Origin: Candidatus Woesearchaeota archaeon
Lineage (GTDB): Archaea > Nanobdellota > Nanobdellia > Woesearchaeales > GW2011-AR4
Direction: 5' to 3'
Length of the DNA: 64,000 nucleotides
Assembly: GCA_016185755.1 (NCBI GenBank)
Contig: JACPMX010000016.1
Location: forward strand, 985-64,984
Positions 2,583 to 59,164 of the stretch are shown here, piece after piece. Made by a program: the position numbers and the translations under genes. The notes beneath the pieces were generated by a model. The model did not search any database. It saw only the letters and a list, made by a program, of their open reading frames with translations, and was not told the DNA's origin. Numbering within the stretch: position 1 is the stretch's first letter; every line of letters starts with the position of its first letter.

Positions 2583-4301
2583 ATGACGGTAAAAATGAAA
2601 GACAAGCTGCAGAAAGTGATTCATCATCTGCCAAAAACTATGCAGAAAATAGCACTTTCCTATTATAATTCCATTGGATTCAGGAAAAGCCACGCATCAA
2701 GGACGCTGCAGCTGGAGTTCCCGATAAAAAGCAAAGACGGCTCGTTCCTATTCCACAAGCCGCTTTTCGGCAACGGGACAAGCCAGGGCTACTTTACCCA
2801 ATATTACAGGGAGCCGGAGATCCCGCAGGTATTCCTGACTGTAGAGGACAGGCTGTCATTAAAGACGGAAACCCTAAAAGGAAGACTATACCAAAAAAAT
2901 AAAAAAGCCAAAAAAAGCATAAAATCAGAATGTATATTGCCGGTTTCTTTGGTAAAAAAAGGATTTGAGGGAAGCTATATCGATAATGACGCCTTGATAC
3001 AGCTCAAAATCAACGGCAAAAAAACGGACCTGAAGGGGCTTGCAATAAACAGATTTCATTACCTGCCTGTACAAGGCAATTCAAAAATAGAATTGTCTTC
3101 CAGCCATGATTTCATTGCCGGTGACGAGCTGGGAAAAAGACAAGGCAAAAAGCACAAGAAGAAGCTTGTGCTGGTTTTATTTATAGACGGCTTTGCAGCG
3201 GAAATCCTTAAAAAATCCCATCTCAAGGACATGATGCCGCACACCTATAGGTTCTTCAGCAAAGGGATAATGTTCAACAACTGCTATTCATCCTCAAAAT
3301 GGACATTGCCAAATCTTGCTTCCATGTTTTCCGGAAAATATGCAAAAAAACACGGCATTTTCCACCCCAGCAAAGAGATAGAGCTGGGAAAGAATTACCC
3401 TGTCATCAGCAATTATTTCCAGGATGACGGCTACCTGACCCTTCATGTGGAGGGCGGATGGCGATTAACCCCCTCTTACGGCTACTGCAAGGGATTTGAC
3501 CGGACAATCTACAAGAAAAACATGCAGGAAAGCGAAATATTGGCAGCCCTTTTTGAGCATATAAGCGCATTTAAGGAAAGAGATAACTTTGCATGGCTCT
3601 CATTCATGGACCTGCACCATGACATGAACCTGCTTCCCGACATAGACATACAGGCGGAAACTCCGATAATGTACCATAGCTACGGCCCGTCAAAAATAAA
3701 ATCTGCGCTGATAAAAAGCTTTGACGAGAAAAAAACATACAAATACGCGAAAAAACTCACTAACATTGATTTTGACCTAAAAAGGATTTATGACTACCTA
3801 GAGGATAATTATAGCAATGACGAGATGCTGGTCGTGCTTGTTTCTGATCACGGCCAGGGATATATACAGGACTCAAAAACAACATTGTCCAAAACAAGGA
3901 CGCACGTCCCCCTAATGGTCAGGGGATGCAAAAATAAAAATACAGGCAGCGACGAGATAGTTTCCAACATGGACCTGCTTCCGATATTGCTGCACCTCTC
4001 GGGAATTCCCTATGACAATGGCAGTTTTGATGGAACTCTTCCAAAGATATTCGGCGGCGAGGGCAGGGAATACGCCATTACAGAGACTATCTACCCTGGA
4101 GAGCCCTACACAGCCGCGATTACCGATGCAGAAAATGAATTTTATTTTGAGACAGAAGCAAATGCCGATGACAGCGGCAATGTAAACGCAAATAAATTCA
4201 AAATTCAGATGATAAACTCTAAGGACGGAAATGATGCAACAGAAAAAAACCCGGAAAAAGCCATGGAGTACAAAAAAATAATTCTAAAGCACATAAGATA
4301 G
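2583..4301 (+). CDS. Type I phosphodiesterase / nucleotide pyrophosphatase family protein (alkaline phosphatase superfamily)
   Basis: LVLVLFIDGF...SSKWTLPNLASMFSGKYAKKHGIF matches the PF01663 core (DG..., PSVTFPNH..TG..P..HGI). A later VLVSDHGQGY matches the AP-superfamily DHG metal site. Confidence 0.6.
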   Translation: MTVKMKDKLQKVIHHLPKTMQKIALSYYNSIGFRKSHASRTLQLEFPIKSKDGSFLFHKPLFGNGTSQGYFTQYYREPEIPQVFLTVEDRLSLKTETLKGRLYQKNKKAKKSIKSECILPVSLVKKGFEGSYIDNDALIQLKINGKKTDLKGLAINRFHYLPVQGNSKIELSSSHDFIAGDELGKRQGKKHKKKLVLVLFIDGFAAEILKKSHLKDMMPHTYRFFSKGIMFNNCYSSSKWTLPNLASMFSGKYAKKHGIFHPSKEIELGKNYPVISNYFQDDGYLTLHVEGGWRLTPSYGYCKGFDRTIYKKNMQESEILAALFEHISAFKERDNFAWLSFMDLHHDMNLLPDIDIQAETPIMYHSYGPSKIKSALIKSFDEKKTYKYAKKLTNIDFDLKRIYDYLEDNYSNDEMLVVLVSDHGQGYIQDSKTTLSKTRTHVPLMVRGCKNKNTGSDEIVSNMDLLPILLHLSGIPYDNGSFDGTLPKIFGGEGREYAITETIYPGEPYTAAITDAENEFYFETEANADDSGNVNANKFKIQMINSKDGNDATEKNPEKAMEYKKIILKHIR

Positions 4302-4362
4302 ATCAGCAAACAGGATTCCGCACTGCTTACATCTTGAATAAAAATACATTAAAATAGAAACC

Positions 4363-4370
4363 TTTATATA
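4363..4370 (+). promoter_or_regulatory. TATA-like box (TTTATATA) upstream of the wHTH/PK-like gene
   Basis: AT-rich octamer about 45 nt upstream of the ATG at 4414. It resembles archaeal TATA boxes; the TSS is unknown. Confidence 0.3.
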
Positions 4371-4376
4371 CTAATA

Positions 4377-4409
4377 TTATTCACTTTTTTATTATAATTA
4401 TTCACTTTT
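4377..4409 (+). promoter_or_regulatory. Direct repeat TTATTCACTTTT x2 (4377-4388 and 4398-4409; 21-bp spacing) just upstream of the ATG at 4414. It is a candidate operator.
   Basis: Two exact 12-mers on the same face of the helix between the TATA-like box and the start codon of a gene encoding a DNA-binding (wHTH) protein. Confidence 0.35.
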
Positions 4410-4413
4410 AAGA

Positions 4414-5826
4414 ATGAGCAACAAATCCAGAGTCTTTGAGTTCCTGTACAGGAACAGCGGCAGCAGGTACAATATCAACCAGATCTCAAGGCTGACTGGC
4501 ATAAGCGTGGGAAGCGCCTTCAAGATCCTGAAAAATCTCGAAAAGGACAACTATGCAAACGCAGAGAAAAGAAACAATTCATTATTATACCAAATCAACC
4601 AAAACGGCCAAACAAAAGATGCTTTTGAGGATATTGAGGAGGAAAAAAGAAGCAAAAACCTGAAGAAAACAAAAATTATATGCACCCTGGGGAAATCTTC
4701 CGAAAGCGGGCCCCTGATTGGGAAATTAATTGAGAAGGGGATGGATGCTGCAAAGATAGACTCCTCCTTTTATGATGAAAAAGGCTCAGCAGGGATAATC
4801 AAAAAAATAAGGGAGATATCGGACCAGATACCAATAATTCTTGACATTTCAAAAAACAGCGAGATAAAGCCATGGGCAAGGGCTGCTATGGAGAACGACA
4901 TTGATTTTATCATAGTCTCAATAAAGAATGCAGATGATATAAGGAGAATAAACCGGCTCCTTGGCTACAGCGACATGAAGCAGGTCATCGGAGAAAAAAT
5001 CAAGGTGCTTGCGCGCCTGGTGGCAGAAAACCTGGGGAACCACAGGGAAATAATAGAAGAAGCTTATGGAGTTGTGGTGGACCGAGACTCGCTTGTAAAG
5101 GGCAAAAGATATGAGATGCTTCCTTTAATGCAGAAGATGATAATAGAAGAATGCAACAAGCAGGGCAAGCCCGCTATAATTTCCGGGCAGGTGCTAAAAT
5201 CAATGGCCGGCAAAAACTTCCCGGAGGCAACTGAAGTTTACAGCATAACCAACATGGTTCTTGACGGGGCTTCCTGCATAATGCTTTCCGGCGAAACCGG
5301 AGCGGGAAATTACCCGGAAGAATCCGTGGCTGCATTATCCAGGATTATCAAGGGGGTGGAGTCAGGCCTGTCAGAAAATTACATTGGGGCAATCCAGGAG
5401 GATTTTGTGCATTCCATAGGAAAAGCGGTATTAGAGGTTGAAAAAAACGCCAATATAGATGCCATACTAATCCTGACGTCTGGAGGCTATTCTGCAAGAA
5501 TGATATCCGGCAGAAGATTAAAATGCAAAGTCATAGCCGCGACATCCAGCAGGAAAATATCCAGGCAGCTCAATATATTGTGGGGAATAAGCCCGCTGCT
5601 TATCAAAGGCAACCTTGAGGACATATCCAGCCGGGAGAAAAAAGAGGCTGTAACCAATTCCCTGAAAAAAGGATTCATAAAAAAGAGCGACCGGATTGCC
5701 ATAGTAGCCTCAGTTTTTCACAGCAAGTCCAAGATAACAAATCTGCTGGAGATACACAAAGTTAACGAGTTTTTGGATTATCTAGATGGCAAGAGCAATG
5801 GCAGGCTAATCACAGAGGTGCGATAA
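4414..5826 (+). CDS. Winged-HTH domain fused to a pyruvate-kinase-like TIM barrel lacking the B (lid) domain; C-terminal PK-like domain present
   Basis: The N-terminal 60 aa resemble MarR/TrmB-like wHTH (ISRLTGISVGSAFKILKNLEKDNY). KIICTLG...ILDISKNSEIKP parallels PK KIVCTIGP...ILLDTKGPEIRT, and LDGASCIMLSGETGAGNYPEESV parallels PK DGTDAVMLSGETAKGKYP. RLNFSHG is replaced by KIDSSFY, and the sequence jumps from the TKGPEIR-equivalent straight to the IDFI block, so the lid is missing. Confidence 0.55.
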   Translation: MSNKSRVFEFLYRNSGSRYNINQISRLTGISVGSAFKILKNLEKDNYANAEKRNNSLLYQINQNGQTKDAFEDIEEEKRSKNLKKTKIICTLGKSSESGPLIGKLIEKGMDAAKIDSSFYDEKGSAGIIKKIREISDQIPIILDISKNSEIKPWARAAMENDIDFIIVSIKNADDIRRINRLLGYSDMKQVIGEKIKVLARLVAENLGNHREIIEEAYGVVVDRDSLVKGKRYEMLPLMQKMIIEECNKQGKPAIISGQVLKSMAGKNFPEATEVYSITNMVLDGASCIMLSGETGAGNYPEESVAALSRIIKGVESGLSENYIGAIQEDFVHSIGKAVLEVEKNANIDAILILTSGGYSARMISGRRLKCKVIAATSSRKISRQLNILWGISPLLIKGNLEDISSREKKEAVTNSLKKGFIKKSDRIAIVASVFHSKSKITNLLEIHKVNEFLDYLDGKSNGRLITEVR

Positions 5827-5827
5827 A

Positions 5828-6898
5828 ATGGCATATTTCCATGAAGCAGCGCTGATAGACAGCACAGATGACATGCAGTTCAAGATATACAGCAGCACGC
5901 ACCCGAAAGGATTTATCATAGCAAAGCCAAAATACATACCAAGCGAGCTGCTTAATCTGGCCGGACTGAAGAAAAGATTTCTTTTCAGCAGGTGCATGTA
6001 CCGCTTCAACCTTTTTAATGATAAGAAGATAGTGGGGAAAAACCTGGAAGAACTAAGGAAAAAATTCCCGGAATGCGTCTATGAATGCAGGAAGCACAAA
6101 AACTGGTTTCTTGGAGTCCCGGAAAAAAAAGTGAAAAAATTCTACGATACTAGAAAAGGACTGCAGGAACTGCTGAAAGTGCCTGTGGAGGACCTTGACA
6201 GCTACTTAAAGGCTGTGAGAAAAATGATAGACATCCTTGCCGAAGCCGGAATAAAATCAAAAGACCTCGGGATTAGCCATTCAACTTTGCTGGGGAACTA
6301 TACCCCGGGAAAATCCGACATAGACATATTGATTTTCGGCATGGGCAACGGCTGGAAAGCTGTTAAGCACCTGGAAAAATGCAAAGATCCTTCATTAAGC
6401 TGGAAATCCAAGGAAGGCTGGGCCAAATATTACAAAGACAGGGTTGTTTCCAAGGTTTACACTGAAAAGGAATATGTCGCGAACATGGTCAGGAAAAAAG
6501 ACGACGGATTTATTGACGGCAACGTATTCTCGCTCTTCTGCATTGAAAATGGGAATGAATCGTGGTATGACTGGGAAGAGGAGCACGAGCCTCTTGCAAC
6601 AGTGAAAATAAAAGCCAAAGTAAAGAATGCATATTATTCCATTGTAAGGCCCGGGTATTACGGGCTGGAAAACAGCAAAGTGCTCGAAGGCTATAAAGAT
6701 GTCCCTATAAAGCGCATTGTCACATGGGCAAGGCCCTTCAGCCTGCAGGCAAAAGAAAACGAGGAAATAGAAGCATGCGGCCTGCTTGAGAAAGTCAAGG
6801 CTGAAGACGGCGAGTTTTACCAGGTAGTGATAGGCTACTTTGATACATATACGACCGGCAGGGGTGAAAAAGAATACCTAAAAGCGTGTATAGACTAA
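5828..6898 (+). CDS. Pol-beta superfamily nucleotidyltransferase-fold protein (paralog A, intact hG[GS]...DhDh-like motif)
   Basis: LGISHSTLLGNYTPGKSDIDILIFG fits the minimal NTase / Cid1-like signature hG[GS]x9-13 DxD. The 356-aa protein has conserved N- and C-terminal extra domains (C-terminus YQVVIGYFDTY). Confidence 0.5.
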   Translation: MAYFHEAALIDSTDDMQFKIYSSTHPKGFIIAKPKYIPSELLNLAGLKKRFLFSRCMYRFNLFNDKKIVGKNLEELRKKFPECVYECRKHKNWFLGVPEKKVKKFYDTRKGLQELLKVPVEDLDSYLKAVRKMIDILAEAGIKSKDLGISHSTLLGNYTPGKSDIDILIFGMGNGWKAVKHLEKCKDPSLSWKSKEGWAKYYKDRVVSKVYTEKEYVANMVRKKDDGFIDGNVFSLFCIENGNESWYDWEEEHEPLATVKIKAKVKNAYYSIVRPGYYGLENSKVLEGYKDVPIKRIVTWARPFSLQAKENEEIEACGLLEKVKAEDGEFYQVVIGYFDTYTTGRGEKEYLKACID

Positions 6899-6899
6899 A

Positions 6900-7988
6900 A
6901 TGCACTTCTACGAATCATCAATAATAACAACAAAAGACGGGCTCCATTGCCAGGTTTACGGCAACGAGCATCCTGAAGGCAGGATACTAGTCAAGCCGAA
7001 GTACATACCGACTGACAGGATATCATGCGATTCCCTGCCTTACAGGTTCATCACCGGCCGGAAGATGAACAGGCTGAACCTCTGGATAGGCCAAAGCAAG
7101 CTTAAGAAATACTTTGATGATTTTGCCAAAGCATATCCCCGATATATATTCAAAAGCCCTGTCCATGAAAAAAGCCCCTTGTTTTTTGCCGTGCCCAAAG
7201 AATGCATTGAAAAAACTTATTCACCAAGGGAAGGGCTTGCAGAGCTCATGAGCATGCCTACAAGCCAGATGGACGACCATCTTAAGGCTGTCTTCGAGTT
7301 AATGTCCTTTCTGCTCACAAGCGGCCTTAAACTGGAGGATTTCGGCATTACCTACTCGACTTTGATGGGCCATTATTCCTCATACAAATCAGACATCAAC
7401 ATTGTTGTCTATGGAAAAAAGAAGTTCTGGCACCTGATGAAATTCCTGGAAAAAACCGGCAATAAGGAGCTGAGGTGGAAGACCTATGAGGAATGGGGGG
7501 AATTCTATAAGAAAAGGAACAGGCACATCATACACAAAAAGGAGAAATACATAGAAGACATGCACAGGAAGAGATCGGAAGGCTTCTTTAAAGGCATACT
7601 GTTTGTAATATTTGCAGTTGAAAACAAAGATGAAACATGGTTCAAATGGGGCGATGAAAAATATAAGAGAATAGGGGCAGCCAAATTTGAAGCTTTTGTA
7701 AAAGAAAATAAAGACTCAGTCGTAAGGCCCGGATGCTATATCATTTCCGATTCCAATTTCATAGGCGGGGATAGTTCATGCAGGGGAATACAAATAAGCA
7801 AAGCCGTCTTTTACTCAAGAGACTACTGCATGCTTGCATATCCGGGCGAGAAAATAGAGATAAGCGGGGTTGTCGAGGAAGTTGCCCGGAAATCGGGCGA
7901 AAAATATTACAGGGTAGTCGTTGGCTACTTTGACTCTTACCTAAGCGGAAGAAGAGATCAAGAATACATAAAAGTTACTGATGATTAA
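6900..7988 (+). CDS. Pol-beta nucleotidyltransferase-fold protein (paralog B; second carboxylate replaced, SDINIV)
   Basis: Colinear with 5828..6898 (KPKYIP, HLKAV, G-I-[ST]-x-STL-G-x-Y, C-terminal YRVVVGYFDSY), about 30-35% identity by eye. Motif is GITYSTLMGHYSSYKSDINIVVYG, with D to N at the second metal ligand. Separated from paralog A by 1 nt. Confidence 0.5.
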   Translation: MHFYESSIITTKDGLHCQVYGNEHPEGRILVKPKYIPTDRISCDSLPYRFITGRKMNRLNLWIGQSKLKKYFDDFAKAYPRYIFKSPVHEKSPLFFAVPKECIEKTYSPREGLAELMSMPTSQMDDHLKAVFELMSFLLTSGLKLEDFGITYSTLMGHYSSYKSDINIVVYGKKKFWHLMKFLEKTGNKELRWKTYEEWGEFYKKRNRHIIHKKEKYIEDMHRKRSEGFFKGILFVIFAVENKDETWFKWGDEKYKRIGAAKFEAFVKENKDSVVRPGCYIISDSNFIGGDSSCRGIQISKAVFYSRDYCMLAYPGEKIEISGVVEEVARKSGEKYYRVVVGYFDSYLSGRRDQEYIKVTDD

Positions 7989-8610
7989 GATGAGCAAAAG
8001 CGAGATTAAAAAACTGCTTGACGAAGATGCAAGCCTTAAGGATGGCTGCAATCTATGCAATGAATCTAAATTCACATCAGGATACGATACAGGATACGGA
8101 ATAATCGTCTACAAGAACGGAACTTTAAAGAACGGCTGGTTCGCAACCCTGTCACCAAAAACCGGCGGGGACCCGGAACACGATTTCACAGTCCAGCTGA
8201 TGCCATGCCTGCATTTGACACATTTCTCACAGATAGCCCCGCATAAGGGCATGATGGAGAATTATGGTGTTGCATTTTCAAGAATTTGCATGGCAATCTC
8301 AGCTGTTTTAATGCAGGAAGAAGGGCTGAAGGCCGGCACTGAAGAAAAAAAGCTGTCCATGCCTTTGGCGACATACGGAAAGAGCACAACATGGAAAAAA
8401 AAGAAGGAGCATCTTCACTTAAAGATTTTCCCGTTTCGCGGGAATATCGGGCAGCCGTATACTGTGGACAGCTCTTTCGGCAAAAAAGAGATTTTTATGG
8501 ACAGCAAGAAGACGGAATTCGTGAAAATGGCGCCTGTGAAGAAAAAGAAACTAAGCAGAGCCAGACTTGGCTACCTGGCAAAAAGGCTGATATCCCTGCT
8601 TGAAAGATAA
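7981..8610 (+). CDS. Atypical HIT-superfamily protein (histidine triad HLHLK variant with about 50-aa insertion)
   Basis: N-terminal CxxC (DGCNLCNE) and ...EHLHLKIFP in the position of the HIT motif H-phi-H-phi-H-phi-phi (third His replaced by Lys). Loosely like GalT/Ap4A-phosphorylase branch proteins. The start may be ATG 7981 (overlapping upstream stop) or ATG 7990. Confidence 0.4.
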   Translation: MIKMSKSEIKKLLDEDASLKDGCNLCNESKFTSGYDTGYGIIVYKNGTLKNGWFATLSPKTGGDPEHDFTVQLMPCLHLTHFSQIAPHKGMMENYGVAFSRICMAISAVLMQEEGLKAGTEEKKLSMPLATYGKSTTWKKKKEHLHLKIFPFRGNIGQPYTVDSSFGKKEIFMDSKKTEFVKMAPVKKKKLSRARLGYLAKRLISLLER

Positions 8611-8611
8611 T

Positions 8612-9490
8612 ATGGCAAAAAAAATAGACTTGCAGTCCCACACTACAGCTTCAGACGGCGAACTGGCTCCCGAAGAGCTGGTTGACCTGGCAATAGAAAA
8701 AGGGCTGAGCGCAATCGCAATAACAGACCACGATTCCGTGGCATCGCTGAAGGCTGCAATTGAGCATTCCAAAGGCAAAAATATTGAAATAGTTACAGGC
8801 GTAGAATTAAGCTGCGACGATCCCATACTAAATTACGACAAAATAGACGTGCTAGGCCTTTTTATAGACCCAAAAAACAAAAAGCTGATGGAATCAATTA
8901 AAAAAATAAACAGGAAAAGGGATGATAACAAAAAGAGGATAATAGGGAAATTAAAAAGCCTCGGCTACGAAATTGAGTATGAAGAAGTCAAAAAAACAGC
9001 CAAAGGGACTTTCGGCAGGCCCCATATTGCAAAATACCTGCTGAAAAAATACCCCTCGGAATTCAGCTCTGTTGCCGACGTTTTCGACAAGCTGATAGGC
9101 ACAGGCAAAAAAGCATTTGTGGGGACCCATGACAGGGTTTCCATCAAGGATGCCGTAAAGACAATAAAAGGCGCTGGCGGCATTTCCATACTGGCTCATC
9201 CGGGAATATACACCAAGGAAGATTCAATCAGGATTATTGATTATTTTATTGACAAAGGAGGCGAGGGAATTGAGACATATTATCCCTACCACATCATATG
9301 CCCGGAGCTTAATGTTGATAAAGAAGGCAATGAAAAAATAATAGGCTTCTACAAAAAAATCGCAAAATCAAAAAGAATACTTGAAAGCGGCGGCAACGAC
9401 CACCACGGCAATTACAGGTTTACTTTGGGAGCTGTTGAAATCCCATACGAAGTTTTGGAAAACCTTAGGAACAGGAAACCTGCCCTGTAG
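8612..9490 (+). CDS. PHP-domain metal-dependent phosphoesterase (TrpH/YciV-like)
   Basis: KIDLQSHTTASDGELAPEELV...AIAITDHDSV is the canonical PHP N-terminal His/Asp motif. Further His-rich motifs (ILAHPG, GGNDHHG) follow. Confidence 0.75.
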   Translation: MAKKIDLQSHTTASDGELAPEELVDLAIEKGLSAIAITDHDSVASLKAAIEHSKGKNIEIVTGVELSCDDPILNYDKIDVLGLFIDPKNKKLMESIKKINRKRDDNKKRIIGKLKSLGYEIEYEEVKKTAKGTFGRPHIAKYLLKKYPSEFSSVADVFDKLIGTGKKAFVGTHDRVSIKDAVKTIKGAGGISILAHPGIYTKEDSIRIIDYFIDKGGEGIETYYPYHIICPELNVDKEGNEKIIGFYKKIAKSKRILESGGNDHHGNYRFTLGAVEIPYEVLENLRNRKPAL

Positions 9491-9499
9491 GCAAACAAA

Positions 9500-10036
9500 A
9501 TGGCAAAATCAGCATGGACTATCTGGTTTGTAGGGCTGCACGGCTCTGGAAAATCAACCATATCAAAAAAAACAGCTGAGATTCTGAGGAAAAAAAACGT
9601 GCCTGTAGTAATTCTTGACGGCGATGAATTAAGGGAAGCAATATCATCCGACCTGGGCTACAGCATAGAAGACAGGGACGAGCACATGAAAAGGACAGCA
9701 GACTTGTGCCGCATAATTTCAGGAAACGGAATACTCTGCATAGCATGCGTTGCATCCCCAACTGAAAAATCCAGGGAATACGCCAAAAAAATGCTCGGAA
9801 AAATAATCATAGTCTATGCCAAATGCCCCCTTGAAGTATGCGAAAAAAGGGATGTCAAGGGGCATTACAGGAAGGCAAGGAACAAAGAAAAGGGATTTGA
9901 AGATTTTTTAGGAATATCCTTGCCTTTCGAAGAGCCAAAGAATGCAGATATAATCCTCAACACTGATAAGGAAAGCGCTGAAGATTCTGTGAGCAGGCTT
10001 CTTAAAAAATTGGCGGAAATGAAGGCAATTGAATGA
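9500..10036 (+). CDS. cysC: Adenylylsulfate (APS) kinase
   Basis: P-loop GLHGSGKST, LDGDELR (CysC LDGDNVR), and KCPLEVCEKRDVKGHYRKAR (CysC CPLEVCEARDPKGLYKKAR). 178 aa. Confidence 0.85.
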   Translation: MAKSAWTIWFVGLHGSGKSTISKKTAEILRKKNVPVVILDGDELREAISSDLGYSIEDRDEHMKRTADLCRIISGNGILCIACVASPTEKSREYAKKMLGKIIIVYAKCPLEVCEKRDVKGHYRKARNKEKGFEDFLGISLPFEEPKNADIILNTDKESAEDSVSRLLKKLAEMKAIE

Positions 10037-10075: not shown

Positions 10076-11068
10076 TTAAACTATCCTTGCTTTCCTTAAA
10101 ATATCCTTGATCTGGCTGATGTTTAGGTAACTGGCGTTTTTTGAATTGCTGTCCATATCAGCTTTCCGTTTTTTTGCCATATCAGAAACAGAAGGATGCC
10201 TTATTACATACATATTTCCCATGTCCTCTGAATAAACTGATTCCTCCTGCGTCATTAAAGACTCGTGCATCTTTTCGCCGAATCTGGCCCCGATAAACCT
10301 GAGCTTTATATCTTTAGGCTCATGGCCGTGCTTAGGGGCAAGCTCTTCTATCATGGCATGTGCAAGATCAATGACTTTCAATGCACTCATCTTGAGCACG
10401 AATATCTCCCCGCTCCTGGTGACTTCGGCGGCCTTCAAGACCAAGCTTATCGCATCAGACTTTGTCATGAAGTAACGGCTCATCTCTTTGTCAGTTATGG
10501 TCAACGGGCCCCCATTTTCAATCTGCTTCCTGAATATCGGTATGACAGAACCAACCGAATCCAGCACATTTCCGAACCTTACGCAGCAGAATTTAGTATC
10601 TGCATTGCTTATTGCAGTGTCTATTATCACCTTTTCGCTAAGCAGCTTTGTGGCCCCCATTGTATTGATTGGGTTAACCGCCTTGTCTGTGGAGATTCCT
10701 ATAAACTTTTCAACATTGTTGTCTATGGAAGCTGAAATCAAATTTTCAGTTCCAACGATATTGGTGCTTACAGCTTCAAAAGGGTTGTACTCGCATAAAG
10801 AAACATGCTTCAGGGCTGCAGCGTGGAATATGATATGAGCCCCCTTTACTGCCCTTTGGACCCTGTTCCTGTCCCTGATGTCACCTATAAGCAGCCTTAT
10901 CCTGTCAGTTGCCAGCTCCTGCCCCAGATGGAACAGGTTTGACTCATTATTGTCAAAAACCCTGATTTTCTCCGGATTATACTTCAGCAACTGCTTTACT
11001 ATCTCGCTGCCGATTGAGCCGCACCCGCCTGTCACCAGTATATCTTTTCCTTCAAAGACGCCTTTCAT
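10076..11068 (-). CDS. UDP-GlcNAc 4,6-dehydratase (CapD/PseB/LegB family polysaccharide biosynthesis protein)
   Basis: ILVTGGCGSIGSEI Rossmann motif, extended SDR. Gene order with DegT, acetyltransferase, NeuC, NeuB, NeuA. Confidence 0.85.
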   Translation of the reverse strand: MKGVFEGKDILVTGGCGSIGSEIVKQLLKYNPEKIRVFDNNESNLFHLGQELATDRIRLLIGDIRDRNRVQRAVKGAHIIFHAAALKHVSLCEYNPFEAVSTNIVGTENLISASIDNNVEKFIGISTDKAVNPINTMGATKLLSEKVIIDTAISNADTKFCCVRFGNVLDSVGSVIPIFRKQIENGGPLTITDKEMSRYFMTKSDAISLVLKAAEVTRSGEIFVLKMSALKVIDLAHAMIEELAPKHGHEPKDIKLRFIGARFGEKMHESLMTQEESVYSEDMGNMYVIRHPSVSDMAKKRKADMDSNSKNASYLNISQIKDILRKARIV

Positions 11069-12174
11069 TTTAACCTCCTTAGGATTTTTTTGAGAGAATT
11101 TACAACTGTATGCATATCTTTTTCCTTAATCTGCTCGTAAAAAGGCAAGATCATTATCGTCCTGCTCAGCTTTTCAGCCACCGGAAAATCACCTTCTTTG
11201 CAGCCAAGACTTTCCCTGTAAAACGGCTGCAGGTGAATGCAGGGATGAAAATACGCCTTGCTCTGTATCCCCATGGCGTTCAATTCGCTTATGGCCCTGT
11301 CCCTTATCTTTTCGCTTACCATTACAGGAAAAACAAACCATGAATGCTCATTGCCTTTTCTGATTTTTGGCAGCGTTACGCCATCGATTCCCTTTAATTC
11401 ATCAAGATAGGCATTTGCAAGCTCCTTTCTTTTTTTAATAAAGCCCGGCAATTTTTCAAGCTGCTCTACCCCAATGGCGGCATTTATCTCGTCCATCCTG
11501 TAATTATAGCCAATCCGCTGGTGGGTAAGCCACTGCATGTTATCCGATCTTCCCTGATTCCTGTAGCTTTTGCACAGTGCGCTTGTTTTTTCATAGTTTG
11601 TAACAATCATGCCTCCTTCAGCTGTTGTCATCTGCTTGTTTGGGTAGAATGCAAAAACTCCCGCATCCCCCATTGTTCCGGTATTTTTTCCCTTATAGGT
11701 AGCCAGTATGCTTTCGCATGCATCCTCTACGACTTTCAGCTTGTTTTCCCTTGCTGCCTTTAGTATAGGATCCATATCGCAGCTTTGGCCGAAGACATGC
11801 ACCGGCAAAATGAACCTTGTCTTTGCATTTATTTTTTCCTTTATCAAATCAGGATTAATGTTAAAAGTGTCCTCTTCCACATCGACAAAAACAGGCTTTG
11901 CATTCTCAAACAAGGCGCAGTTTGCAGAGGCAACAAAAGAAAAAGGAGTTGTTATCACCTCATCTCCGGGATTTATGCCCAAAGACTTTAATGCCAGGTG
12001 CAGCCCTGAAGTGCCTGAGTTGACAGCAATGGCATATTTTGACCCCATAAGCCTGGAGAATTTTTCCTCAAATTCTTCCAATTTAGGGCCTAAGCTCAAT
12101 ATTCCTGATTTCAGCACTTTTACTACTGAATTGATCTCTTCTTTTCCTATTGTCGGCCTTGATAATGGTATCAT
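11065..12174 (-). CDS. DegT/DnrJ/EryC1-type PLP-dependent sugar aminotransferase (PseC/LegC-like)
   Basis: Full-length match to the family: VNSGTSGLHLAL, ...PVHVFGQ..D.D, and the FYPNKQMTTAEGGMIVT lysine region. Confidence 0.85.
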   Translation of the reverse strand: MIPLSRPTIGKEEINSVVKVLKSGILSLGPKLEEFEEKFSRLMGSKYAIAVNSGTSGLHLALKSLGINPGDEVITTPFSFVASANCALFENAKPVFVDVEEDTFNINPDLIKEKINAKTRFILPVHVFGQSCDMDPILKAARENKLKVVEDACESILATYKGKNTGTMGDAGVFAFYPNKQMTTAEGGMIVTNYEKTSALCKSYRNQGRSDNMQWLTHQRIGYNYRMDEINAAIGVEQLEKLPGFIKKRKELANAYLDELKGIDGVTLPKIRKGNEHSWFVFPVMVSEKIRDRAISELNAMGIQSKAYFHPCIHLQPFYRESLGCKEGDFPVAEKLSRTIMILPFYEQIKEKDMHTVVNSLKKILRRLK

Positions 12175-12184
12175 TTTAGTGTTT

Positions 12185-12589
12185 TCAATTTTTTATTTTC
12201 TTCACAACTTTAGCCGGGATGCCATAAGCAACAACATTATCCTGGATGTCCCTGTTGACAAACGAAAAAGCCCCTATAACTGAATTTTTCCCTATCGAAA
12301 CCCCGGGCATTATGACAGAATGGCTGCCTATTTTACAGTTTTCCTTTAATGTCACCATTCCTTTCTTGCCGTCTATTGTGCTTATGCTGTATATCGAGCA
12401 GTGGCTTCCTACCTGCACACCATCCTGTATTTCCACGCCGTGCTTCGCGTTTATGTATGTAAATGCGCCTATATCAGTTTTCCTGCCCAGTTTCAGGCCG
12501 CCTTTATTCCGGACCAGCCAGCTGTATTTTGTCATTTTTCCTTCCCTGATTTCCGGGAATTTCCAGCCCTTAAACCTTTCTTCTTCCAT
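12185..12589 (-). CDS. Hexapeptide-repeat (left-handed beta-helix) N-acetyltransferase (PseH/LegH-like)
   Basis: Repeating [LIV]G.... hexads (IGSHSVIMPGVSIGKNSVIGAFSFV). Start set at the internal Met to avoid overlap with the upstream gene, so the start is uncertain. Confidence 0.65.
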   Translation of the reverse strand: MEEERFKGWKFPEIREGKMTKYSWLVRNKGGLKLGRKTDIGAFTYINAKHGVEIQDGVQVGSHCSIYSISTIDGKKGMVTLKENCKIGSHSVIMPGVSIGKNSVIGAFSFVNRDIQDNVVAYGIPAKVVKKIKN

Positions 12590-12593
12590 TTTT

Positions 12594-13733
12594 CTAGTAT
12601 GATATCCTCTTCTGCAGGAGCTTCTCATCAATTTTTATGCTTTTTAGGCATTCAAGCACCTTCTGGAAAGTATCTCCGCTGCCGAAAGGATTCTTCAGGC
12701 TTTTTATTCTCTTCTGAAAACCTTTTGATAAAGCGAGCTTTATGGATTTTTTAATATCTTCCTTCTGATATCCGCAGTCAATGACATTTCCTGCCCTTTC
12801 CCTTCCTTTTTGCCTTGAGCCTATATTGACGGCAGGAAGCCTGAAATATGGGGCCTCTATTATTGCGCTGCTGGAGTTCCCAACAATTACATCAGCAAAG
12901 CCCATAATGCCTATGAATTCTACGTAATCCAGATTTTTCCTTATCCTGAAGCCCGGATTTGAGGCAAATTCGCCAATGGCCTTTATAATTCCACTGTTTC
13001 CGGGGTCTGCATTAGGATAAACAACAAGGCACTGGGCGTCAATTTCAGCTACCGCCTTTAGCGTGTTGAGTATTTGGCTGTATGAGCTGTTTTCCTCGAG
13101 CGTTACAGGATGCTGCAAAACCAGCACAAGAGGCTTTTCATTGCTTAATTCAAATTTTTTGTATAATTCTCTTTTTGAAATCTTTTTCATCTCCCTTATG
13201 TTGCTTACGGAAGGGGAACCGACAACACGTATCCTAAAAGAATCTTCCCCCATTTTTTTTATCCTTTCTGCAGATTTTTCCGTGGCGCAGAAATGCAGAT
13301 GGCTCAGCTTTGTTATTGCATGCCTTGCCGCCTCGTCAACGGTCGAGGTCACTTCGCCGCCATGGAAATGGGCAACAGGTATGGAAAGGTAAGAGCCTGC
13401 AATAGCCCCTCCTAAGGCCTCTATCCTGTCGCCTATGACAAAAATAAAGTCCGGCTTTATCTCGCTAAGTTTTTTTGTCAATTTTTCTATAAAATTACCC
13501 AAAAAAAACAGCATAGATGCCTTGTTGTCTTTCTCGAAAACAGAATTTATCTCTACTGTGCCCAATCCGCTTTTTTTGACCTCATCTATGCTATGGCCGA
13601 ATTTTTCCATCATATGCATGCCTGTTGCAATTACAGTTATCTTAAAGCCTTTAGCCTTATCCAATTTTTTCAGCAGTCCCGACATTATCCCGAAATCCGC
13701 CCTTGTTCCCGATATATAAACAATTTTTTTCAT
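12594..13733 (-). CDS. neuC: UDP-N-acetylglucosamine 2-epimerase, hydrolysing type (NeuC/LegG-like)
   Basis: MKKIVYISGTRADFGIM...HGGE..S..DE..RHAITKLSHLHF is characteristic of the NeuC/WecB epimerase fold. Sits immediately upstream of NeuB. Confidence 0.75.
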   Translation of the reverse strand: MKKIVYISGTRADFGIMSGLLKKLDKAKGFKITVIATGMHMMEKFGHSIDEVKKSGLGTVEINSVFEKDNKASMLFFLGNFIEKLTKKLSEIKPDFIFVIGDRIEALGGAIAGSYLSIPVAHFHGGEVTSTVDEAARHAITKLSHLHFCATEKSAERIKKMGEDSFRIRVVGSPSVSNIREMKKISKRELYKKFELSNEKPLVLVLQHPVTLEENSSYSQILNTLKAVAEIDAQCLVVYPNADPGNSGIIKAIGEFASNPGFRIRKNLDYVEFIGIMGFADVIVGNSSSAIIEAPYFRLPAVNIGSRQKGRERAGNVIDCGYQKEDIKKSIKLALSKGFQKRIKSLKNPFGSGDTFQKVLECLKSIKIDEKLLQKRISY

Positions 13734-14800
13734 TCTATCTTTTCCAAACTTAATAATTCATCTTTCATAATTTGGGCATTCGCTTTTTTCCCTATTATCG
13801 AGTAGATATCTTTAGGCTTCAATCCAATTCCAGGCCTTTTTATTGCAAGATTTCCAAAGCTTAGTTTCTCGCCTTTTGCTATGTTCCTTGCAGCTACTAT
13901 GCTTTTTCTTGCTACTTTGGCATTTTCTATTTCGCTTTTTGTTGGCTTTTTTTCAGCACTCCCCAAAACTCCCCCATCAAGCTTGATTTTCTCATAATCC
14001 TTGTTTTTTATTGCTGTTATCATTTCTTTTAATTCATCAGGCTCCAAAGAAGCTTTGTGGTCAGGCCCTTCCATGCCCCTGTCAAGGGTAAAATGCTTCT
14101 CTATCAGGACCGCGCCTAGCTTAACAGCCATCTGCGGAACATCAATCCCGAGCGTGTGGTCAGAATAGCCCACCAGGCTATCTAATTCCTTCTGCATGGT
14201 CTGCATGGCCCTTAAGTTCACTTCATTTTTTGGGCATGGGTAACTGGTTGTGCAATGCAGCATGATAACTTCCCTGTTGCCTGCTTCATATATTTCACTC
14301 AATGCCTCTTTTACCTCTTCCAAGGTAGACATCCCTGTCCCCAAAATCATGGGCTTGAGCTTTTTTGCAGCCTTTTTCAAAAAAGGGATATTGGTAAGGT
14401 CTCCGGAGCCTATTTTGAATGCAGGCATCATCTTGTCCAAAAAATCTATTGCATCATTTGTATGGGGGGTCGATAAAAAGATAATATCTTTCTCATCACA
14501 ATATTTTTTTAATGCTTTGAAATTGTTGTAATCCAATTCTAATCTCTTCAGCATCTGCAACTGAGTTTCACCTCCTCCAATATTCTCTTCCTGGTATTTC
14601 GCCATTGGAGTTTTTTCAGCAATCAAATCCTCTGATTTAAAAGTCTGGAACTTTACAGCATCAGCTCCCGCATCTTTTGCTGCATCCACAAGCTTTTTTG
14701 CCAATTCCAAAGAGCCGTTGTGGTTCACTCCCGCTTCCGCTATTATGAAGCAAGGCTCATTTTCCCCGATTCCTCTGCCCCCTATGTTTATCCGCATCAT
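13730..14800 (-). CDS. neuB: N-acylneuraminate (nonulosonic acid) synthase, NeuB/LegI/PseI family, with C-terminal SAF domain
   Basis: CFIIAEAGVNHNGSLELAKKLVDAAKDAGADAVKFQTF is the NeuB signature. The antifreeze-like C-terminus is present. Confidence 0.85.
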   Translation of the reverse strand: MMRINIGGRGIGENEPCFIIAEAGVNHNGSLELAKKLVDAAKDAGADAVKFQTFKSEDLIAEKTPMAKYQEENIGGGETQLQMLKRLELDYNNFKALKKYCDEKDIIFLSTPHTNDAIDFLDKMMPAFKIGSGDLTNIPFLKKAAKKLKPMILGTGMSTLEEVKEALSEIYEAGNREVIMLHCTTSYPCPKNEVNLRAMQTMQKELDSLVGYSDHTLGIDVPQMAVKLGAVLIEKHFTLDRGMEGPDHKASLEPDELKEMITAIKNKDYEKIKLDGGVLGSAEKKPTKSEIENAKVARKSIVAARNIAKGEKLSFGNLAIKRPGIGLKPKDIYSIIGKKANAQIMKDELLSLEKIE

Positions 14801-15510
14801 TTGTGCCGCTGAATTATATTCCTGTTTATTTCCATCAGCTTGGGATTCTCAAGAAGAAGTTTAATGATGCTTTTCAGCGGAAAGATATTTTTATCGCCTA
14901 AGCTGTCAAAAATCCTCCTTACAAGCTCCAAATCCTCGCTGAAATCCACGGTCAGCCTTATTTCCGGATGCCTTAACTCTTCTTCAACCTCCAGGTCTAT
15001 CTTTTTCAGGCTGGACTCCCTTTCAAATAGGTTCCCCCATATTTCCGTGTCTTTCTCTTTTTTGGTTTCTATAATTTTCTTAAGAGCATCAATCTTGATT
15101 CCATAGGAAAAAGCGCCCAGCGGAAGATTTTTGCAGGTTATAAAATCAGCATCGGATTCCCTGAAACTGGTGATTATCCTGTCAATATAAGCAGGATCAA
15201 CCAGGGGGTTGTCTGCAGTAACGCTGACTATATGGCTTGCCTTGTATTTTTTTGCTGCATTGAACAGCCTGTCGAGCACGTCATCCTCGCTGCCCCTGAA
15301 CCATTTTATGCCCTCTTTCTCGGCAACATCTATCAATACATCATCCTGGGGATTTGTTGATGTGCAGAGGATTATCCCATCGGCATTTTTTGACAGCTTC
15401 AGCCTGTCTATCTGGTGCTCTATCATAGGCCTTCCTTTTATGTACCTCAGCACTTTTAACGGGAGCCTTTCCGATTTCATCCTTACTGTTATGGTTATTG
15501 CCGCTTTCAT
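14797..15510 (-). CDS. neuA: CMP-nonulosonic acid synthetase (acylneuraminate cytidylyltransferase, NeuA/LegF/PseF)
   Basis: ITVRMKSERLPLKVL...PMIEHQIDRL matches the CMP-sugar cytidylyltransferase N-terminus (GT-A-like nucleotidyltransferase). Confidence 0.8.
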   Translation of the reverse strand: MKAAITITVRMKSERLPLKVLRYIKGRPMIEHQIDRLKLSKNADGIILCTSTNPQDDVLIDVAEKEGIKWFRGSEDDVLDRLFNAAKKYKASHIVSVTADNPLVDPAYIDRIITSFRESDADFITCKNLPLGAFSYGIKIDALKKIIETKKEKDTEIWGNLFERESSLKKIDLEVEEELRHPEIRLTVDFSEDLELVRRIFDSLGDKNIFPLKSIIKLLLENPKLMEINRNIIQRHK

Positions 15511-16547
15511 TTTTCCACATTCCTCCAGCTTATAAGCGAATATTTCTTAATAGGCTCTTTTGCCTTTTTGCCGATTAAGCTAAAGAATTCCCTCTGCTCT
15601 ATGGTATTTTCCTTTTTTGTTCTCCTGAAAGCCAGGTCTTTTTTTCCTATGGAGCTTCCTTTTTTTATGTCACCTGCAGCGACTATTGTAAACTTCATCG
15701 GACCTTTCCTCGCGTATATGTTCTCGTAATCGCTGATTTCAAATGAGCCGTCGCCTTTGGCCTTGTTTAGAATACCCATCTTGCCCCTTATTTCCCTCAG
15801 GCTTTCTGCAGACACCGCAGCGTCGTAATCAGTTCTTTTTTTCCCTGCTTCCAGGGCAACGTGCTTTTCAATTATATTCGGACCTGCCATGAATCCGGCC
15901 AGTGTCATCAGTTCATTGTTTTTGTCGTCCCAGGCAGTATGGTCTGCGTATCCCACAGGAAGACCGAATTTTTCCTTGATTTTTTGCATCCTTCTGAAAT
16001 TTATATATTCATATCTCGTGGGGTAGTTCTGGAAACCGTGCATGAGAAGAATGTCTTTCCTGTCCAGGAATTTAACAGCGAATTCTATGTCTTTGATACC
16101 TGAGCCGCCAATGCCAAGAATTATCGGAACCTTTATGCCTTTCACCCTTTCAAGCATTTCTATGTTGTTCAAGGCCACAGCATGAATTTCAACAGCATCG
16201 ACCAAATCAACATTCTCCTTTACAAAATCAATAGAGTACAGGTCATCAGCCAAGACTATATTGTCAAAACCGGAGCTTTTTGCCTTTTCCAATATCATGA
16301 TCCACTGGCTTTTTGAAAACATGGATTTTTTGATTATGCTGTAAGCGGGATGGTCTTTTGTGAAATAAGAGTCTATGTCGATCATTATGTGGAATTTTAC
16401 CCCATCGCAGCTTTTTTTTGATGCAAGACTGTGGATCAGCCTGTTCATGTAGGAAAAGTTCCCCTCGTGTATATATGCGGTTTCCCCAATTATGTAAGGA
16501 CAGTTCTCATCTTCCATTGCTTCCTTGAACCTGCTTTTTTTTGCCAT
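15507..16547 (-). CDS. Second, divergent NeuB-family (sialic-acid-synthase-like) paralog with SAF domain
   Basis: PYIIGETAYIHEG... parallels NeuB IIAEAGVNHNG. HGFQNYPT and a C-terminal SAF-like segment are present. It is more divergent than 13730..14800. Confidence 0.55.
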   Translation of the reverse strand: MAKKSRFKEAMEDENCPYIIGETAYIHEGNFSYMNRLIHSLASKKSCDGVKFHIMIDIDSYFTKDHPAYSIIKKSMFSKSQWIMILEKAKSSGFDNIVLADDLYSIDFVKENVDLVDAVEIHAVALNNIEMLERVKGIKVPIILGIGGSGIKDIEFAVKFLDRKDILLMHGFQNYPTRYEYINFRRMQKIKEKFGLPVGYADHTAWDDKNNELMTLAGFMAGPNIIEKHVALEAGKKRTDYDAAVSAESLREIRGKMGILNKAKGDGSFEISDYENIYARKGPMKFTIVAAGDIKKGSSIGKKDLAFRRTKKENTIEQREFFSLIGKKAKEPIKKYSLISWRNVEK

Positions 16548-17027
16548 TTATTTATGCCCCATGACCTTGAGCATGTCATAATCCTCAAACTTGTAAACGC
16601 ATGTTGTCAGCGACTCAGACCAGTCGTTTATTATTTTGCTGAATTTGTTCCGGATCGCCCGCGTTATATTCCCAAGGTCCATGCCGTCCCTGGCAATCAC
16701 TACAATGGAAAAGTCCCATTCACCGGAAACAGACATTACTTCAGCTACATTTGGGTGCCCCTTAAGATAGTCTATGAACTCCCTTATGTCGCTATCAGAG
16801 TAATTGTGCGCCTTAATCTTAATGTCAACTATGTTGTTAAACCCAAAATTCCTCGGCCTCAGCTGTATCTTCGGGAAAAAAATATTGTTTTCCTTCATCT
16901 TGATTATCCTCTTTTTAGTCGAATCCACGGACAACTTGACTTTTTTTGCAATGCCTGTCAGGGATTTCCTGCAGTCTGCCTGCAGCATGTTAAGAATAAT
17001 GCAGTCCTTTTCATCAAGCTTTATCAT
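16548..17027 (-). CDS. Lrp/AsnC-family transcriptional regulator
   Basis: LDEKDCIILNMLQADCRKSLTGIAKKVKLSVDSTKKRIIKMKENNI is HTH_AsnC, followed by a C-terminal RAM domain. 159 aa. Confidence 0.8.
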   Translation of the reverse strand: MIKLDEKDCIILNMLQADCRKSLTGIAKKVKLSVDSTKKRIIKMKENNIFFPKIQLRPRNFGFNNIVDIKIKAHNYSDSDIREFIDYLKGHPNVAEVMSVSGEWDFSIVVIARDGMDLGNITRAIRNKFSKIINDWSESLTTCVYKFEDYDMLKVMGHK

Positions 17028-17237
17028 TCTTCTTAAAAATACGATTTTATTTATAAATATTTCTATTTTTTAAGATATATATTTAAATATAGCTTAAAAT
17101 TTAAGCTAATACATGGCAATCTCCTGCGGAAATTAAGACATTATGTGAATTATGAATAACGCGCCCTTCGCAGCCCAGGAGCCATTTTAAAGCGCATAAG
17201 ATTTTTAAACTCACATCCAATTCTTGGCTTCATAAAA
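17028..17237. promoter_or_regulatory. Divergent AT-rich promoter region between the Lrp/AsnC gene and the wbuZ-like operon. It contains TTTATTTATAAATAT, TATA-like.
   Basis: 210-bp intergenic region with several TATA-like AT tracts, flanked by divergently oriented gene strings. Confidence 0.3.
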
Positions 17238-58877: not shown

Positions 58878-59164
58878 TTTTTCTTTAATCTCCAGTACCT
58901 TCTATAAATAAAAAATGAAATTGTTATTAACCAGTAAAGAATTAAAAGACCCAATCCCAAAGTTAATAAATATCCTATTGCCAAAGCTAACCCGATTCCT
59001 CCTAAACCACCATCGTCTAATTTAGGAATTTTGATTGCCACCATAAGCAAAATCAAATTAAATAAATGAATTAAAGTGCCTGAAATAATCCAGATGATTT
59101 TGAACATACTCTTATTCTTTTTTTCCCTGATTTTTCTACTTGCCATTTTAGTCTTCCTCAACAA
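58874..59164 (-). CDS. Small membrane protein (2 TM)
   Basis: 96 aa, two hydrophobic helices with a Gly-rich loop (DDGGLGGIG). Overlaps neighbours on both sides. Confidence 0.3.
   Translation of the reverse strand: MLRKTKMASRKIREKKNKSMFKIIWIISGTLIHLFNLILLMVAIKIPKLDDGGLGGIGLALAIGYLLTLGLGLLILYWLITISFFIYRRYWRLKKK

Follow-up and report, generated by a model that had tools for sequence, protein, structure and literature searches.

A DxD/DxN pair of nucleotidyltransferase-fold paralogs and its conserved gene module in surface-glycan clusters of DPANN archaea

Introduction

A 64,000-nt stretch of DNA from a Candidatus Woesearchaeota archaeon (contig JACPMX010000016.1, positions 985 to 64,984 of the forward strand; referred to below as the window) contains two adjacent genes encoding similar proteins, named here A and B. 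A first inspection of the sequence (the original prediction) regarded them as an active enzyme and a pseudo-enzyme of the polymerase beta (Pol-beta) nucleotidyltransferase (NTase) fold, distinguished by an Asp-to-Asn replacement in a catalytic motif. The locus raises the questions of whether B is a decayed copy of A and what the two proteins do in the gene cluster that carries them. We report that they belong to a conserved, previously undescribed enzyme set that is widely kept in DPANN archaea, and that B appears to have been modified for a specific role. A tentative function in the supply of activated sulfate for glycan sulfation is discussed together with its alternatives.

Two paralogs separated by a single nucleotide

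The two reading frames meet at the junction GAC TAA A ATG, so that exactly 1 nt lies between them, and their products are 100% identical to two entries annotated as 'hypothetical protein' (HYX08_07035 and HYX08_07040; Candidatus Woesearchaeota, DPANN). BLASTP aligned A with B over the full length (35% identity, 63% positives, E 8e-86), a similarity far beyond chance, and the open reading frame (ORF) coordinates and the junction itself bear out the claim that they are colinear paralogs 1 nt apart. Most of the motifs quoted in the original prediction were found, i.e. KPKYIP in both proteins, SDIDIL in A, SDINIV in B, and YQVVIGYFDTY and YRVVVGYFDSY near the respective C-termini, but HLKAV occurs only in B (A has YLKAV), and the remaining motif reads STL[LM]G and Y-x3-KSDI instead of STL-G and Y-x4-KSDI.

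The family sample comprised 144 members from 78 loci. A spacing of 1 nt is the commonest one between A and B across species (32 of 56 loci), and in approximately 47 of these 56 loci the genes are separated by no more than 9 nt or overlap slightly. The Asp-to-Asn difference is real and not peculiar to one genome: all 61 B-type sequences carry SDxN and the 83 others SDxD.

Fold and family of A and B

Structural comparison matched one part of A with NTase cores, namely those of GLD-2 (score 7.6), TUT4 (6.9), Pol X (6.8), CutA, cGLR, DncV, CdnE, Cid1 and Pol beta/lambda/mu, and another with OB-folds, namely those of SSB, RPA, Pot1, MCM-N and the N-domains of Asp-, Asn- and Lys-tRNA synthetases. 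Based on these matches, A has an NTase core flanked by a beta domain at the N-terminus and an OB-fold at the C-terminus; B, modelled within a natural fusion protein, gave the same matches. The combination of the three domains has no solved counterpart. A Foldseek search with A against the PDB gave no match at E ≤ 1e-3, and A, B and the profile of the neighboring HIT protein (see below) gave nothing meaningful against PDB chain sequences.

The minimal alpha-beta-alpha-beta-alpha-beta core fold of the Pol-beta-like superfamily is present. A also carries the hG[GS] loop, the [DE]h[DE]h motif and the third carboxylate, and the residues concerned (Table 1) are invariant in all A orthologs. Since the second carboxylate is replaced by Asn in every B ortholog, B on its own lacks the [DE]h[DE]h feature. 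With the Pfam model NTP_transf_2, A scored 17.2 bits (E 0.007), which is below the cutoff of 21, and B gave no match, while two distant homologs from Bathyarchaeia exceeded the threshold (30.2 and 21.6 bits). The assignment of A and B to the NTases is sound at the superfamily level, in agreement with the original prediction. The closest known members are GLD-2, TUT4/7, Cid1, CutA, Pol X, cGAS/DncV-like enzymes and dimeric small-molecule NTases such as kanamycin nucleotidyltransferase. A comparison with TiaS, which had also been proposed, gave neither a family-model nor a structure match for its arrangement of catalytic domain, OB domain and zinc ribbon.

When 1.84 billion cluster representatives were searched with a profile, 977 clusters were retrieved at E ≤ 1e-3, 600 of them at E ≤ 1e-10. 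About 20 are of the DPANN A/B type, and hundreds represent distant relatives of approximately 340 aa in TACK archaea (Thermofilum, Vulcanisaeta, Korarchaeota and Bathyarchaeia), all annotated as 'hypothetical' or 'predicted nucleotidyltransferase'. We found no description of the family or the module in the literature, including under COG1665. One distant member (P0448, 505 aa) has an N-terminal HPPK domain (FolK-like, 'YLSLGSNLGDR'), a hint of a possible role of the TACK-archaeal branch in pterin or cofactor metabolism. The Bathyarchaeia loci (L075-L080) contain two to three paralogs beside ESCRT-III/Vps4-like, MobB, CitG-like and Fwd subunit genes, neighborhoods that provided no functional lead.

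B as a re-tooled paralog

In two-metal Pol-beta enzymes, an Asn in place of the second Asp is expected to impair canonical nucleotidyl transfer severely, and B was initially described as a pseudo-enzyme with a degenerate motif. The conservation of its orthologs contradicts this description. Over 1539 locus pairs, the A orthologs share a mean pairwise identity of 0.597 and the B orthologs one of 0.604, B being the more conserved partner in 51.5% of the pairs. Twelve residues (H25, K33, K35, R50, R59, G148, S152, T153, S163, D164, E240 and R274) are invariant in DPANN orthologs of both types, and in B the G-[ST]-x-S loop is kept, as are the first Asp and the third carboxylate (E240), while none of the conserved basic residues is lost. 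Between A and B, 66 positions are fixed and identical and 11 are fixed but different; two of the latter lie in active-site motifs (H151 to Y and D166 to N, in A numbering). Because B is as constrained as A and carries two fixed changes in its active site, the alignments point to specific re-tooling of a derived paralog and not to decay.

In a neighbor-joining (NJ) tree without support values, rooted on the Bathyarchaeia homologs, a clade of single-copy DxD proteins, A-like at most of the 11 diagnostic sites, falls outside the A/B split. This topology suggests that A and B arose by a single ancient duplication and that B is the derived form, which became fixed on one occasion at an early stage of DPANN evolution. 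In the same NJ analysis, the A and B parts are not fully congruent (e.g. the window, L052, L043 and L069); the B of the window clusters with B proteins of lineages whose A is only approximately 49% identical to the A of the window. The incongruence suggests either partner exchange between lineages or strong differences in rate.

A conserved module and its natural fusions

Clustering of the genes of approximately 70 DPANN loci revealed the recurrent order [s80][NPP] A B HIT PHP/HD [APS kinase], where APS stands for adenosine 5'-phosphosulfate and s80 for a protein of 79 aa. A gene for an NPP-like protein of the alkaline-phosphatase (AP) superfamily (PF01663, E 1.6e-39) precedes A in 38 loci. 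A PHP gene is found in 44 loci; in others its position is taken by a gene for an HD protein or for a CysQ/IMPase-family protein (E 7e-53). Three unrelated phosphatase families thus alternate at one position, and two of them, PHP and CysQ/IMPase, contain known phosphatases of 3'-phosphoadenosine 5'-phosphate (pAp). Downstream of 54 B genes, the HIT gene comes next in 43 cases and is fused to B in 7; a ProRS-like gene follows in 3 and an HD gene in 1. A and B strictly co-occur, and apart from gaps in ORF calling, no B gene without an A gene was found where the contig allows the region to be viewed.

Five kinds of natural fusion were identified: (i) HD::A (P0075 and P0102), (ii) NPP::A (approximately 820 aa), (iii) NPP::HD::A (P0363, 1087 aa), (iv) B::HIT (at least 12 proteins) and (v) B::HIT::HAD-like (L015). 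In these fusions the partners of A are always phosphohydrolases and that of B is HIT; no A::B fusion was seen among the family members and fusions examined. The strict co-occurrence, the 1-nt spacing and the complementary fusion partners lend indirect support to the obligate heterodimer suggested in the original prediction, and A and B are best read, tentatively, as the two subunits of a heteromeric NTase.

The HIT protein has the alpha+beta fold of its superfamily, and its motif H144-L-H146-L-K148-I-F is invariant in 20 of 20 aligned sequences, with the first two His residues kept and Lys at the third position. Its closest relatives are in the GalT branch (GalT, ADP-glucose phosphorylase, Ap4A phosphorylase and adenylylsulfate:phosphate adenylyltransferase), where Gln occupies the position comparable to this Lys (bioRxiv 10.64898/2026.09.13.751320). 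It differs from this branch in having no Pfam, NCBIfam or PDB sequence match, in being a single domain of approximately 200 aa and in carrying Lys instead of Gln or His. It is moreover obligatorily linked, and often fused, to B, a linkage that has not been described for any HIT enzyme.

Several further components deserve mention. The s80 protein (L019:6129-6368 and 24 other loci) precedes the NPP-like gene, looks ribbon-helix-helix-like by eye ('VSIPAELAKKIE...') and has no Pfam match; it may be the regulator of the module in loci that lack the winged-helix/pyruvate-kinase (PK)-like protein described below. A HAD-like protein of approximately 270 aa is either fused to B::HIT (L015:11061-13499) or encoded between HIT and PHP (L008:12788-13603; L016:12709-13530). 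Its motif I is DLNGT, with Asn in place of the second Asp, i.e. another D-to-N variant of a phosphoryl-transfer fold within the module. A class II aminoacyl-tRNA synthetase (aaRS) resembling prolyl-tRNA synthetase (ProRS; 447-457 aa) is encoded inside the module in 10 loci (L062-L065, L070-L073, L046 and L056; e.g. L071:11079-12422). It scored 380 bits with TIGR00408, below the cutoff of 437, and Pfam finds no anticodon-binding domain in it.

Two observations concern taxonomy. Locus L061 (JAGXBC010000002.1), labeled Patescibacteria, encodes NPP, A, B and HD proteins with approximately 40% identity to those of the window, which reflects either transfer between DPANN and candidate phyla radiation (CPR) episymbionts or an error in binning or labeling. 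The label 'uncultured Methanosarcinales', carried by many binchicken metagenome-assembled genomes (MAGs) with 80% identical genes, looks like placeholder taxonomy.

Surface-glycan and sulfation context

The module lies inside surface-glycan clusters in all DPANN loci, with genes for GT1 and GT2 glycosyltransferases, Wzx flippase, CapD, DegT and NTP_transferase; in the window two NeuB paralogs and WbuX are added. The median distance of CapD, GT1, NTP_transferase, methyltransferase, GT2 and DegT genes to the module is 4-6 genes. An APS kinase gene directly adjoins a module gene in 15 of 19 loci and is at most two genes away in 18 of 19, and Sulfotransfer_2 genes adjoin the module in 4 of 4 cases.

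No signature of ATP sulfurylase, whether Sat or CysD/N, was found in the flanks of any of the 20 module loci bearing APS kinase. As a control we used generic APS kinases (37-44% identity) among the matches listed by an alignment scan for DPANN-type APS kinases; a Sat/CysDN signature was present in 24 of 38 such loci of comparable length, or in 15 of 38 by a strict criterion. The Fisher p values for the difference are 8e-7 and, by the strict criterion, 1e-3, which overstate the independence of the data, since the 20 loci are phylogenetically related. A single-sequence scan for DPANN-type APS kinases near the module or Sat found nothing. The Sat motifs QxRNPxHxxH and GRDHAG do not occur in the 1.35 Mb of loci, and A, B and HIT gave no family match with PF01747 or PAPS_reduct. 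The sole ORF with a PP-loop (SGGKDS), at first suspected to be CysD, turned out to be the WbuX amidotransferase.

A possible route to activated sulfate

Our tentative proposal, in which function is read from gene context only, is that A/B, as a heteromeric NTase, forms the center of a non-canonical pathway leading to APS and 3'-phosphoadenosine 5'-phosphosulfate (PAPS) for glycan sulfation. The module would convert ATP and sulfate into APS, a step whose canonical enzymes are missing from the neighboring genes. NTases move AMP from ATP, and GalT-type HIT enzymes swap AMP between oxyanions. The following sequence of reactions can be envisaged: (i) A, with its intact two-metal DxD...E site, would perform Mg-dependent adenylyl transfer; (ii) the phosphohydrolases fused or adjacent to A would destroy the pyrophosphate-type by-product and so pull the unfavorable reaction; (iii) B (DxN, often fused to HIT) would bind the adenylyl compound without canonical catalysis and hand it to HIT, which would exchange AMP between oxyanions through a His146-AMP intermediate; (iv) APS kinase would form PAPS for the sulfotransferases of the cluster; and (v) the PHP, HD or CysQ-like enzyme would recycle pAp. 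The equilibrium of sulfate adenylylation is very unfavorable, so tight coupling to phosphohydrolases and APS kinase would be sensible. APS is an established substrate of HIT enzymes, and APS:phosphate adenylyltransferases belong to the GalT branch (PMC4613722; bioRxiv 10.64898/2026.09.13.751320). The data show the paralogy, the folds, the fixed residues, the synteny, the fusions and the proximity to APS kinase and sulfotransferase genes; we infer the heteromer, all substrates and the division of labor between A, B and HIT. A stronger version, which we regard as unlikely, would make A/B with HIT a third, evolutionarily independent sulfate-activating enzyme, an ATP sulfurylase composed of a Pol-beta NTase heterodimer and a GalT-type HIT transferase, physically coupled to phosphohydrolases and producing PAPS for the surface glycans of DPANN archaea, with an older version in which the ProRS-like aaRS supplies the adenylate instead of HIT.

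Like Sat, or CysD/CysN with CysC and CysQ, the module stands beside genes for APS kinase, pAp-phosphatase-type and sulfotransferase proteins, and the required chemistry, i.e. the transfer of an adenylyl group from ATP to an oxyanion, is typical of NTases and HIT enzymes. It differs from the canonical systems in that its activity is deduced and in that it shares neither homology nor diagnostic motifs with Sat (HUP-type fold) or CysD (PP-loop); any sulfurylase activity would therefore be analogous and not homologous. A second likeness is to the O-methyl phosphoramidate (MeOPN) pathway of Campylobacter jejuni (Cj1415-Cj1418), in which Cj1415 is an APS-kinase homolog. There, an NTase encoded in a glycan cluster couples an oxyanion to a nucleotide, from which a kinase produces a 3'-phosphorylated, PAPS-like donor (PMC11800397). 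That bacterial pathway uses another nucleotidyltransferase family, has no HIT or AP-superfamily partner and transfers phosphoramidate, not sulfate.

Several points weigh against the sulfate-activation proposal. APS kinase lies within 10 kb of the module in only about one quarter of the loci, and the distant TACK members of the family are not in a sulfation context. No Pol-beta-fold enzyme with sulfate as acceptor is known; HIT alone would be a more conventional sulfate adenylyltransferase, which would leave A/B without a defined role, and an OB-fold more often hints at binding of nucleic acids or oligosaccharides. The ProRS-like aaRS replaces B and HIT in the basal single-copy clade and HIT in three A/B loci; it can be accommodated only speculatively, with an aminoacyl-adenylate as alternative AMP donor, and the role given to the NPP-like enzyme is a guess. 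Sulfate adenylyltransferase genes were reported in all DPANN MAGs of one study (PMC8091004), so that the canonical enzyme may sit elsewhere in the genomes, our searches having covered the locus flanks.

Alternative functions

A somewhat doubtful alternative is that the module makes another nucleotide-activated donor for glycan decoration (a PAPS analogue comparable to CDP-phosphoramidate 3'-phosphate, or else an NDP-sugar or NDP-alcohol), the sulfation genes being neighbors and not partners. A/B would then be an NTP:X-phosphate nucleotidyltransferase, HIT a GalT-like NMP exchanger or phosphorylase, the NPP-like protein a phosphomutase or phosphotransferase, and the PHP, HAD or IMPase protein a sugar- or alcohol-phosphate phosphatase. 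The C. jejuni capsule, where a nucleotidyltransferase and an APS-kinase-type enzyme yield 3'-phosphorylated CDP-phosphoramidate, offers a precedent (PMC11800397). A CDP-alcohol-phosphatidyltransferase-like membrane protein is also encoded near the module (median distance of 2 genes), phosphatases of the HAD and IMPase types are characteristic of sugar-phosphate pathways, and loci without an APS kinase in the vicinity also have the module in a glycan cluster. This reading is weakened by the APS kinase and Sulfotransfer_2 genes, which are nearer to the module than any generic glycan gene, by the score of the APS kinase above the curated adenylyl-sulfate kinase cutoff and by the best family match of the PHP protein, a pAp phosphatase. 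Ordinary sugar-1-phosphate nucleotidyltransferases (PF00483) are, in addition, already present in the same clusters, and the missing ATP sulfurylase would be left unexplained.

It is unlikely, in our estimation, that A and B are independent homo-oligomeric enzymes with different substrates or steps and no obligate heteromer, the DxN of B serving another chemistry, such as the phosphoryl or pyrophosphoryl transfer of RelA/SpoT-type Pol-beta-fold enzymes. A single-copy ancestral form does exist and presumably works alone, B is as conserved as an active enzyme, the two paralogs have different fusion partners and are never fused to each other in the material examined, and their trees are not fully congruent. 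The order of domains in HD::A and NPP::HD::A, with HD N-terminal to the Pol-beta fold, is that of RelA/SpoT homologs, the HD protein has a weak match to the HD domain of SpoT/RelA, and the alternative phosphatases all come from families that remove nucleotide 3'-(pyro)phosphate. However, A has no RelA_SpoT Pfam match, and the resemblance is architectural only; its G-S...DxD residues are classical NTase motifs and not those of RelA/SpoT-homolog (RSH) synthetases. The strict co-occurrence of A and B, usually at 1-nt spacing, the lack of loci with B but no A (ORF-calling gaps aside) and the 66 positions common to both, including surface-exposed basic residues, argue against independence.

We consider it improbable that A/B add or repair nucleotides at the 3' end of RNA or tRNA, with the OB-fold as RNA-binding domain, the ProRS-like protein as a tRNA-linked partner, PHP as an RNase AM/RNM-type exonuclease or 3'-phosphatase and HIT as an aprataxin- or Hint-like de-adenylylase. 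In favor of such a role, the NTase core is most like template-independent RNA NTases (GLD-2, TUT4/7, Cid1 and CutA, with a CCA-adding enzyme in Foldseek), the OB-fold resembles those of SSB, RPA and aaRS anticodon-binding domains, the PHP protein matches RNase RNM (E 3.5e-42), 10 loci have the ProRS-like gene within the module, and the distant TACK homologs are found among housekeeping genes. All DPANN loci are nevertheless in glycan clusters, beside glycosyltransferase, flippase and sulfation genes; no tRNA or Rfam RNA was found in the 64-kb window, and the fusions are to AP-superfamily, HD and HAD phosphohydrolases, not to RNA-binding or ligase domains. A role in nucleotide signaling or anti-phage defense (CD-NTase/CBASS-like, AbiEii-like or as an MNT-like toxin-antitoxin system), some of which the original prediction had offered for comparison, is hardly credible, as PADLOC found no defense-system match to A, B or HIT, on which ground the CD-NTase and AbiE readings were rejected, SMODS/CD-NTase and AbiEii gave no Pfam match, no effector-like gene is present, the context is an invariant, biosynthetic operon unlike a variable defense island, and the spread in DPANN archaea looks vertical, the trees roughly following lineages.

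The operon and other features of the window

The coordinates of the genes and other features are presented in Table 1. The AT-rich region upstream of the PK-like gene is, judging from its sequence, probably the archaeal promoter of the operon; a sigma-70 promoter and terminator scan is not applicable to an archaeon and was uninformative. Four successive TAA-N-ATG junctions of 1 nt each connect the genes for the PK-like protein, A, B, HIT (ATG 7990) and PHP (ATG 8612), and a 9-nt gap separates the last of these from the APS kinase gene. The best match of the PHP protein is the 3',5'-nucleoside bisphosphate (pAp) phosphatase model NF041577 (E 2.6e-44, 151 bits), with a score below the equivalog cutoff of 400.

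Table 1. Features of the window discussed in this study (positions are those of the 64,000-nt stretch)
Feature	Coordinates	Strand	Description
Alkaline-phosphatase-superfamily protein	2583..4301	+	572 aa; upstream of operon; Pfam Sulfatase 1.2e-26, Phosphodiest 2.9e-14
AT-rich intergenic region	4302..4413	+	TATA-like box (TTTATATA near 4364); only sizeable gap before the tightly coupled gene run
Winged-helix and pyruvate-kinase-like protein	4414..5826	+	470 aa; Pfam PK barrel and PK_C; weak MarR/HTH_24 match, residues 5-47
Paralog A	5828..6898	+	356 aa; N-terminal beta domain, Pol-beta NTase core (G148-I-S150...S163-D164-I-D166...E240), C-terminal OB-fold
Paralog B	6900..7988	+	362 aa; A-like architecture; fixed N167 (second metal-ligand position), Y at 152
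HIT-superfamily protein	7981..8610	+	209 aa from ATG 7981, 206 aa from ATG 7990; H144-L-H146-L-K148, C23xxC26/H78
PHP-domain phosphoesterase	8600..9490	+	296 aa from TTG 8600; ATG 8612 is 1 nt past the HIT stop; Pfam PHP 4.9e-14
APS kinase (CysC)	9500..10036	+	Last operon gene; Pfam APS_kinase 4e-42; TIGR00455 162.7 bits (cutoff 138.7)
CapD-like dehydratase, DegT aminotransferase	within 10076-19892		Region with genes on both strands
NeuB paralogs (two)	13730-14800, 15507-16547		
WbuX N-acetyl-sugar amidotransferase	18636-19892		

The PK-like protein was compared by BLASTP with E. coli PykF. PykF residues 74-182, corresponding to the lid (B) domain, were unmatched, and four catalytic positions are replaced (K220R, E222V, D246S and T278G). 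Its gene is located upstream of A in only 6 loci, always without the NPP-like gene. For these reasons it was rejected as an ATP-regenerating partner of the module; by its sequence it is probably a PK-derived regulator or ligand sensor.

The alkaline-phosphatase-superfamily protein upstream of the operon may be the counterpart of the NPP-like protein; it belongs to a different sequence cluster, and its membership in the module is uncertain. PF00884 proteins near the module, i.e. this one and those of cluster c11 (e.g. L006:7669-8994), appear by eye to lack the C/S-x-P-x-R formylglycine signature (...SSSKWTLPNLASMFSG..., ...SSTPSVASMMTG...), and may be phospho- or sulfo-transferases with a Thr or Ser nucleophile and not sulfatases.

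Downstream of the operon, the region 10076-19892 contains, on both strands, a gene set of the nonulosonic-acid glycan type. Between positions 54000 and 64000 the GC content is 0.29-0.36, compared with approximately 0.43 elsewhere, and the minus strand encodes very large proteins, including one of 1440 aa with a subtilase domain (59148-63473) and several of 585-769 aa without family, which may be surface or secreted proteins or belong to a foreign island.

Significance

The components of the module come from known superfamilies; what is new is the domain architecture, the fixed pairing of DxD with DxN and the combination of several enzymes in one module. To our knowledge, Sat and CysDN are the only two kinds of enzyme known to activate sulfate. 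If the sulfate-activation proposal is true, the module would be a third, unrelated solution, a categorically new route and a textbook-level addition, and it would change how sulfur metabolism is read from metagenomes, in which its genes are now 'hypothetical'. Even with another substrate, a family of about 1000 clusters without a Pfam, NCBIfam or PDB representative gains a fold, an architecture and catalytic signatures, as well as partners, through the five kinds of natural fusion, and a testable pathway context. The DxD/DxN pair provides a clean natural case of a duplicate that appears to have been re-tooled and not inactivated. DPANN archaea depend on contact with their hosts through the cell surface, and a lineage-specific module located in surface-glycan clusters therefore bears on how these episymbionts build that interface.

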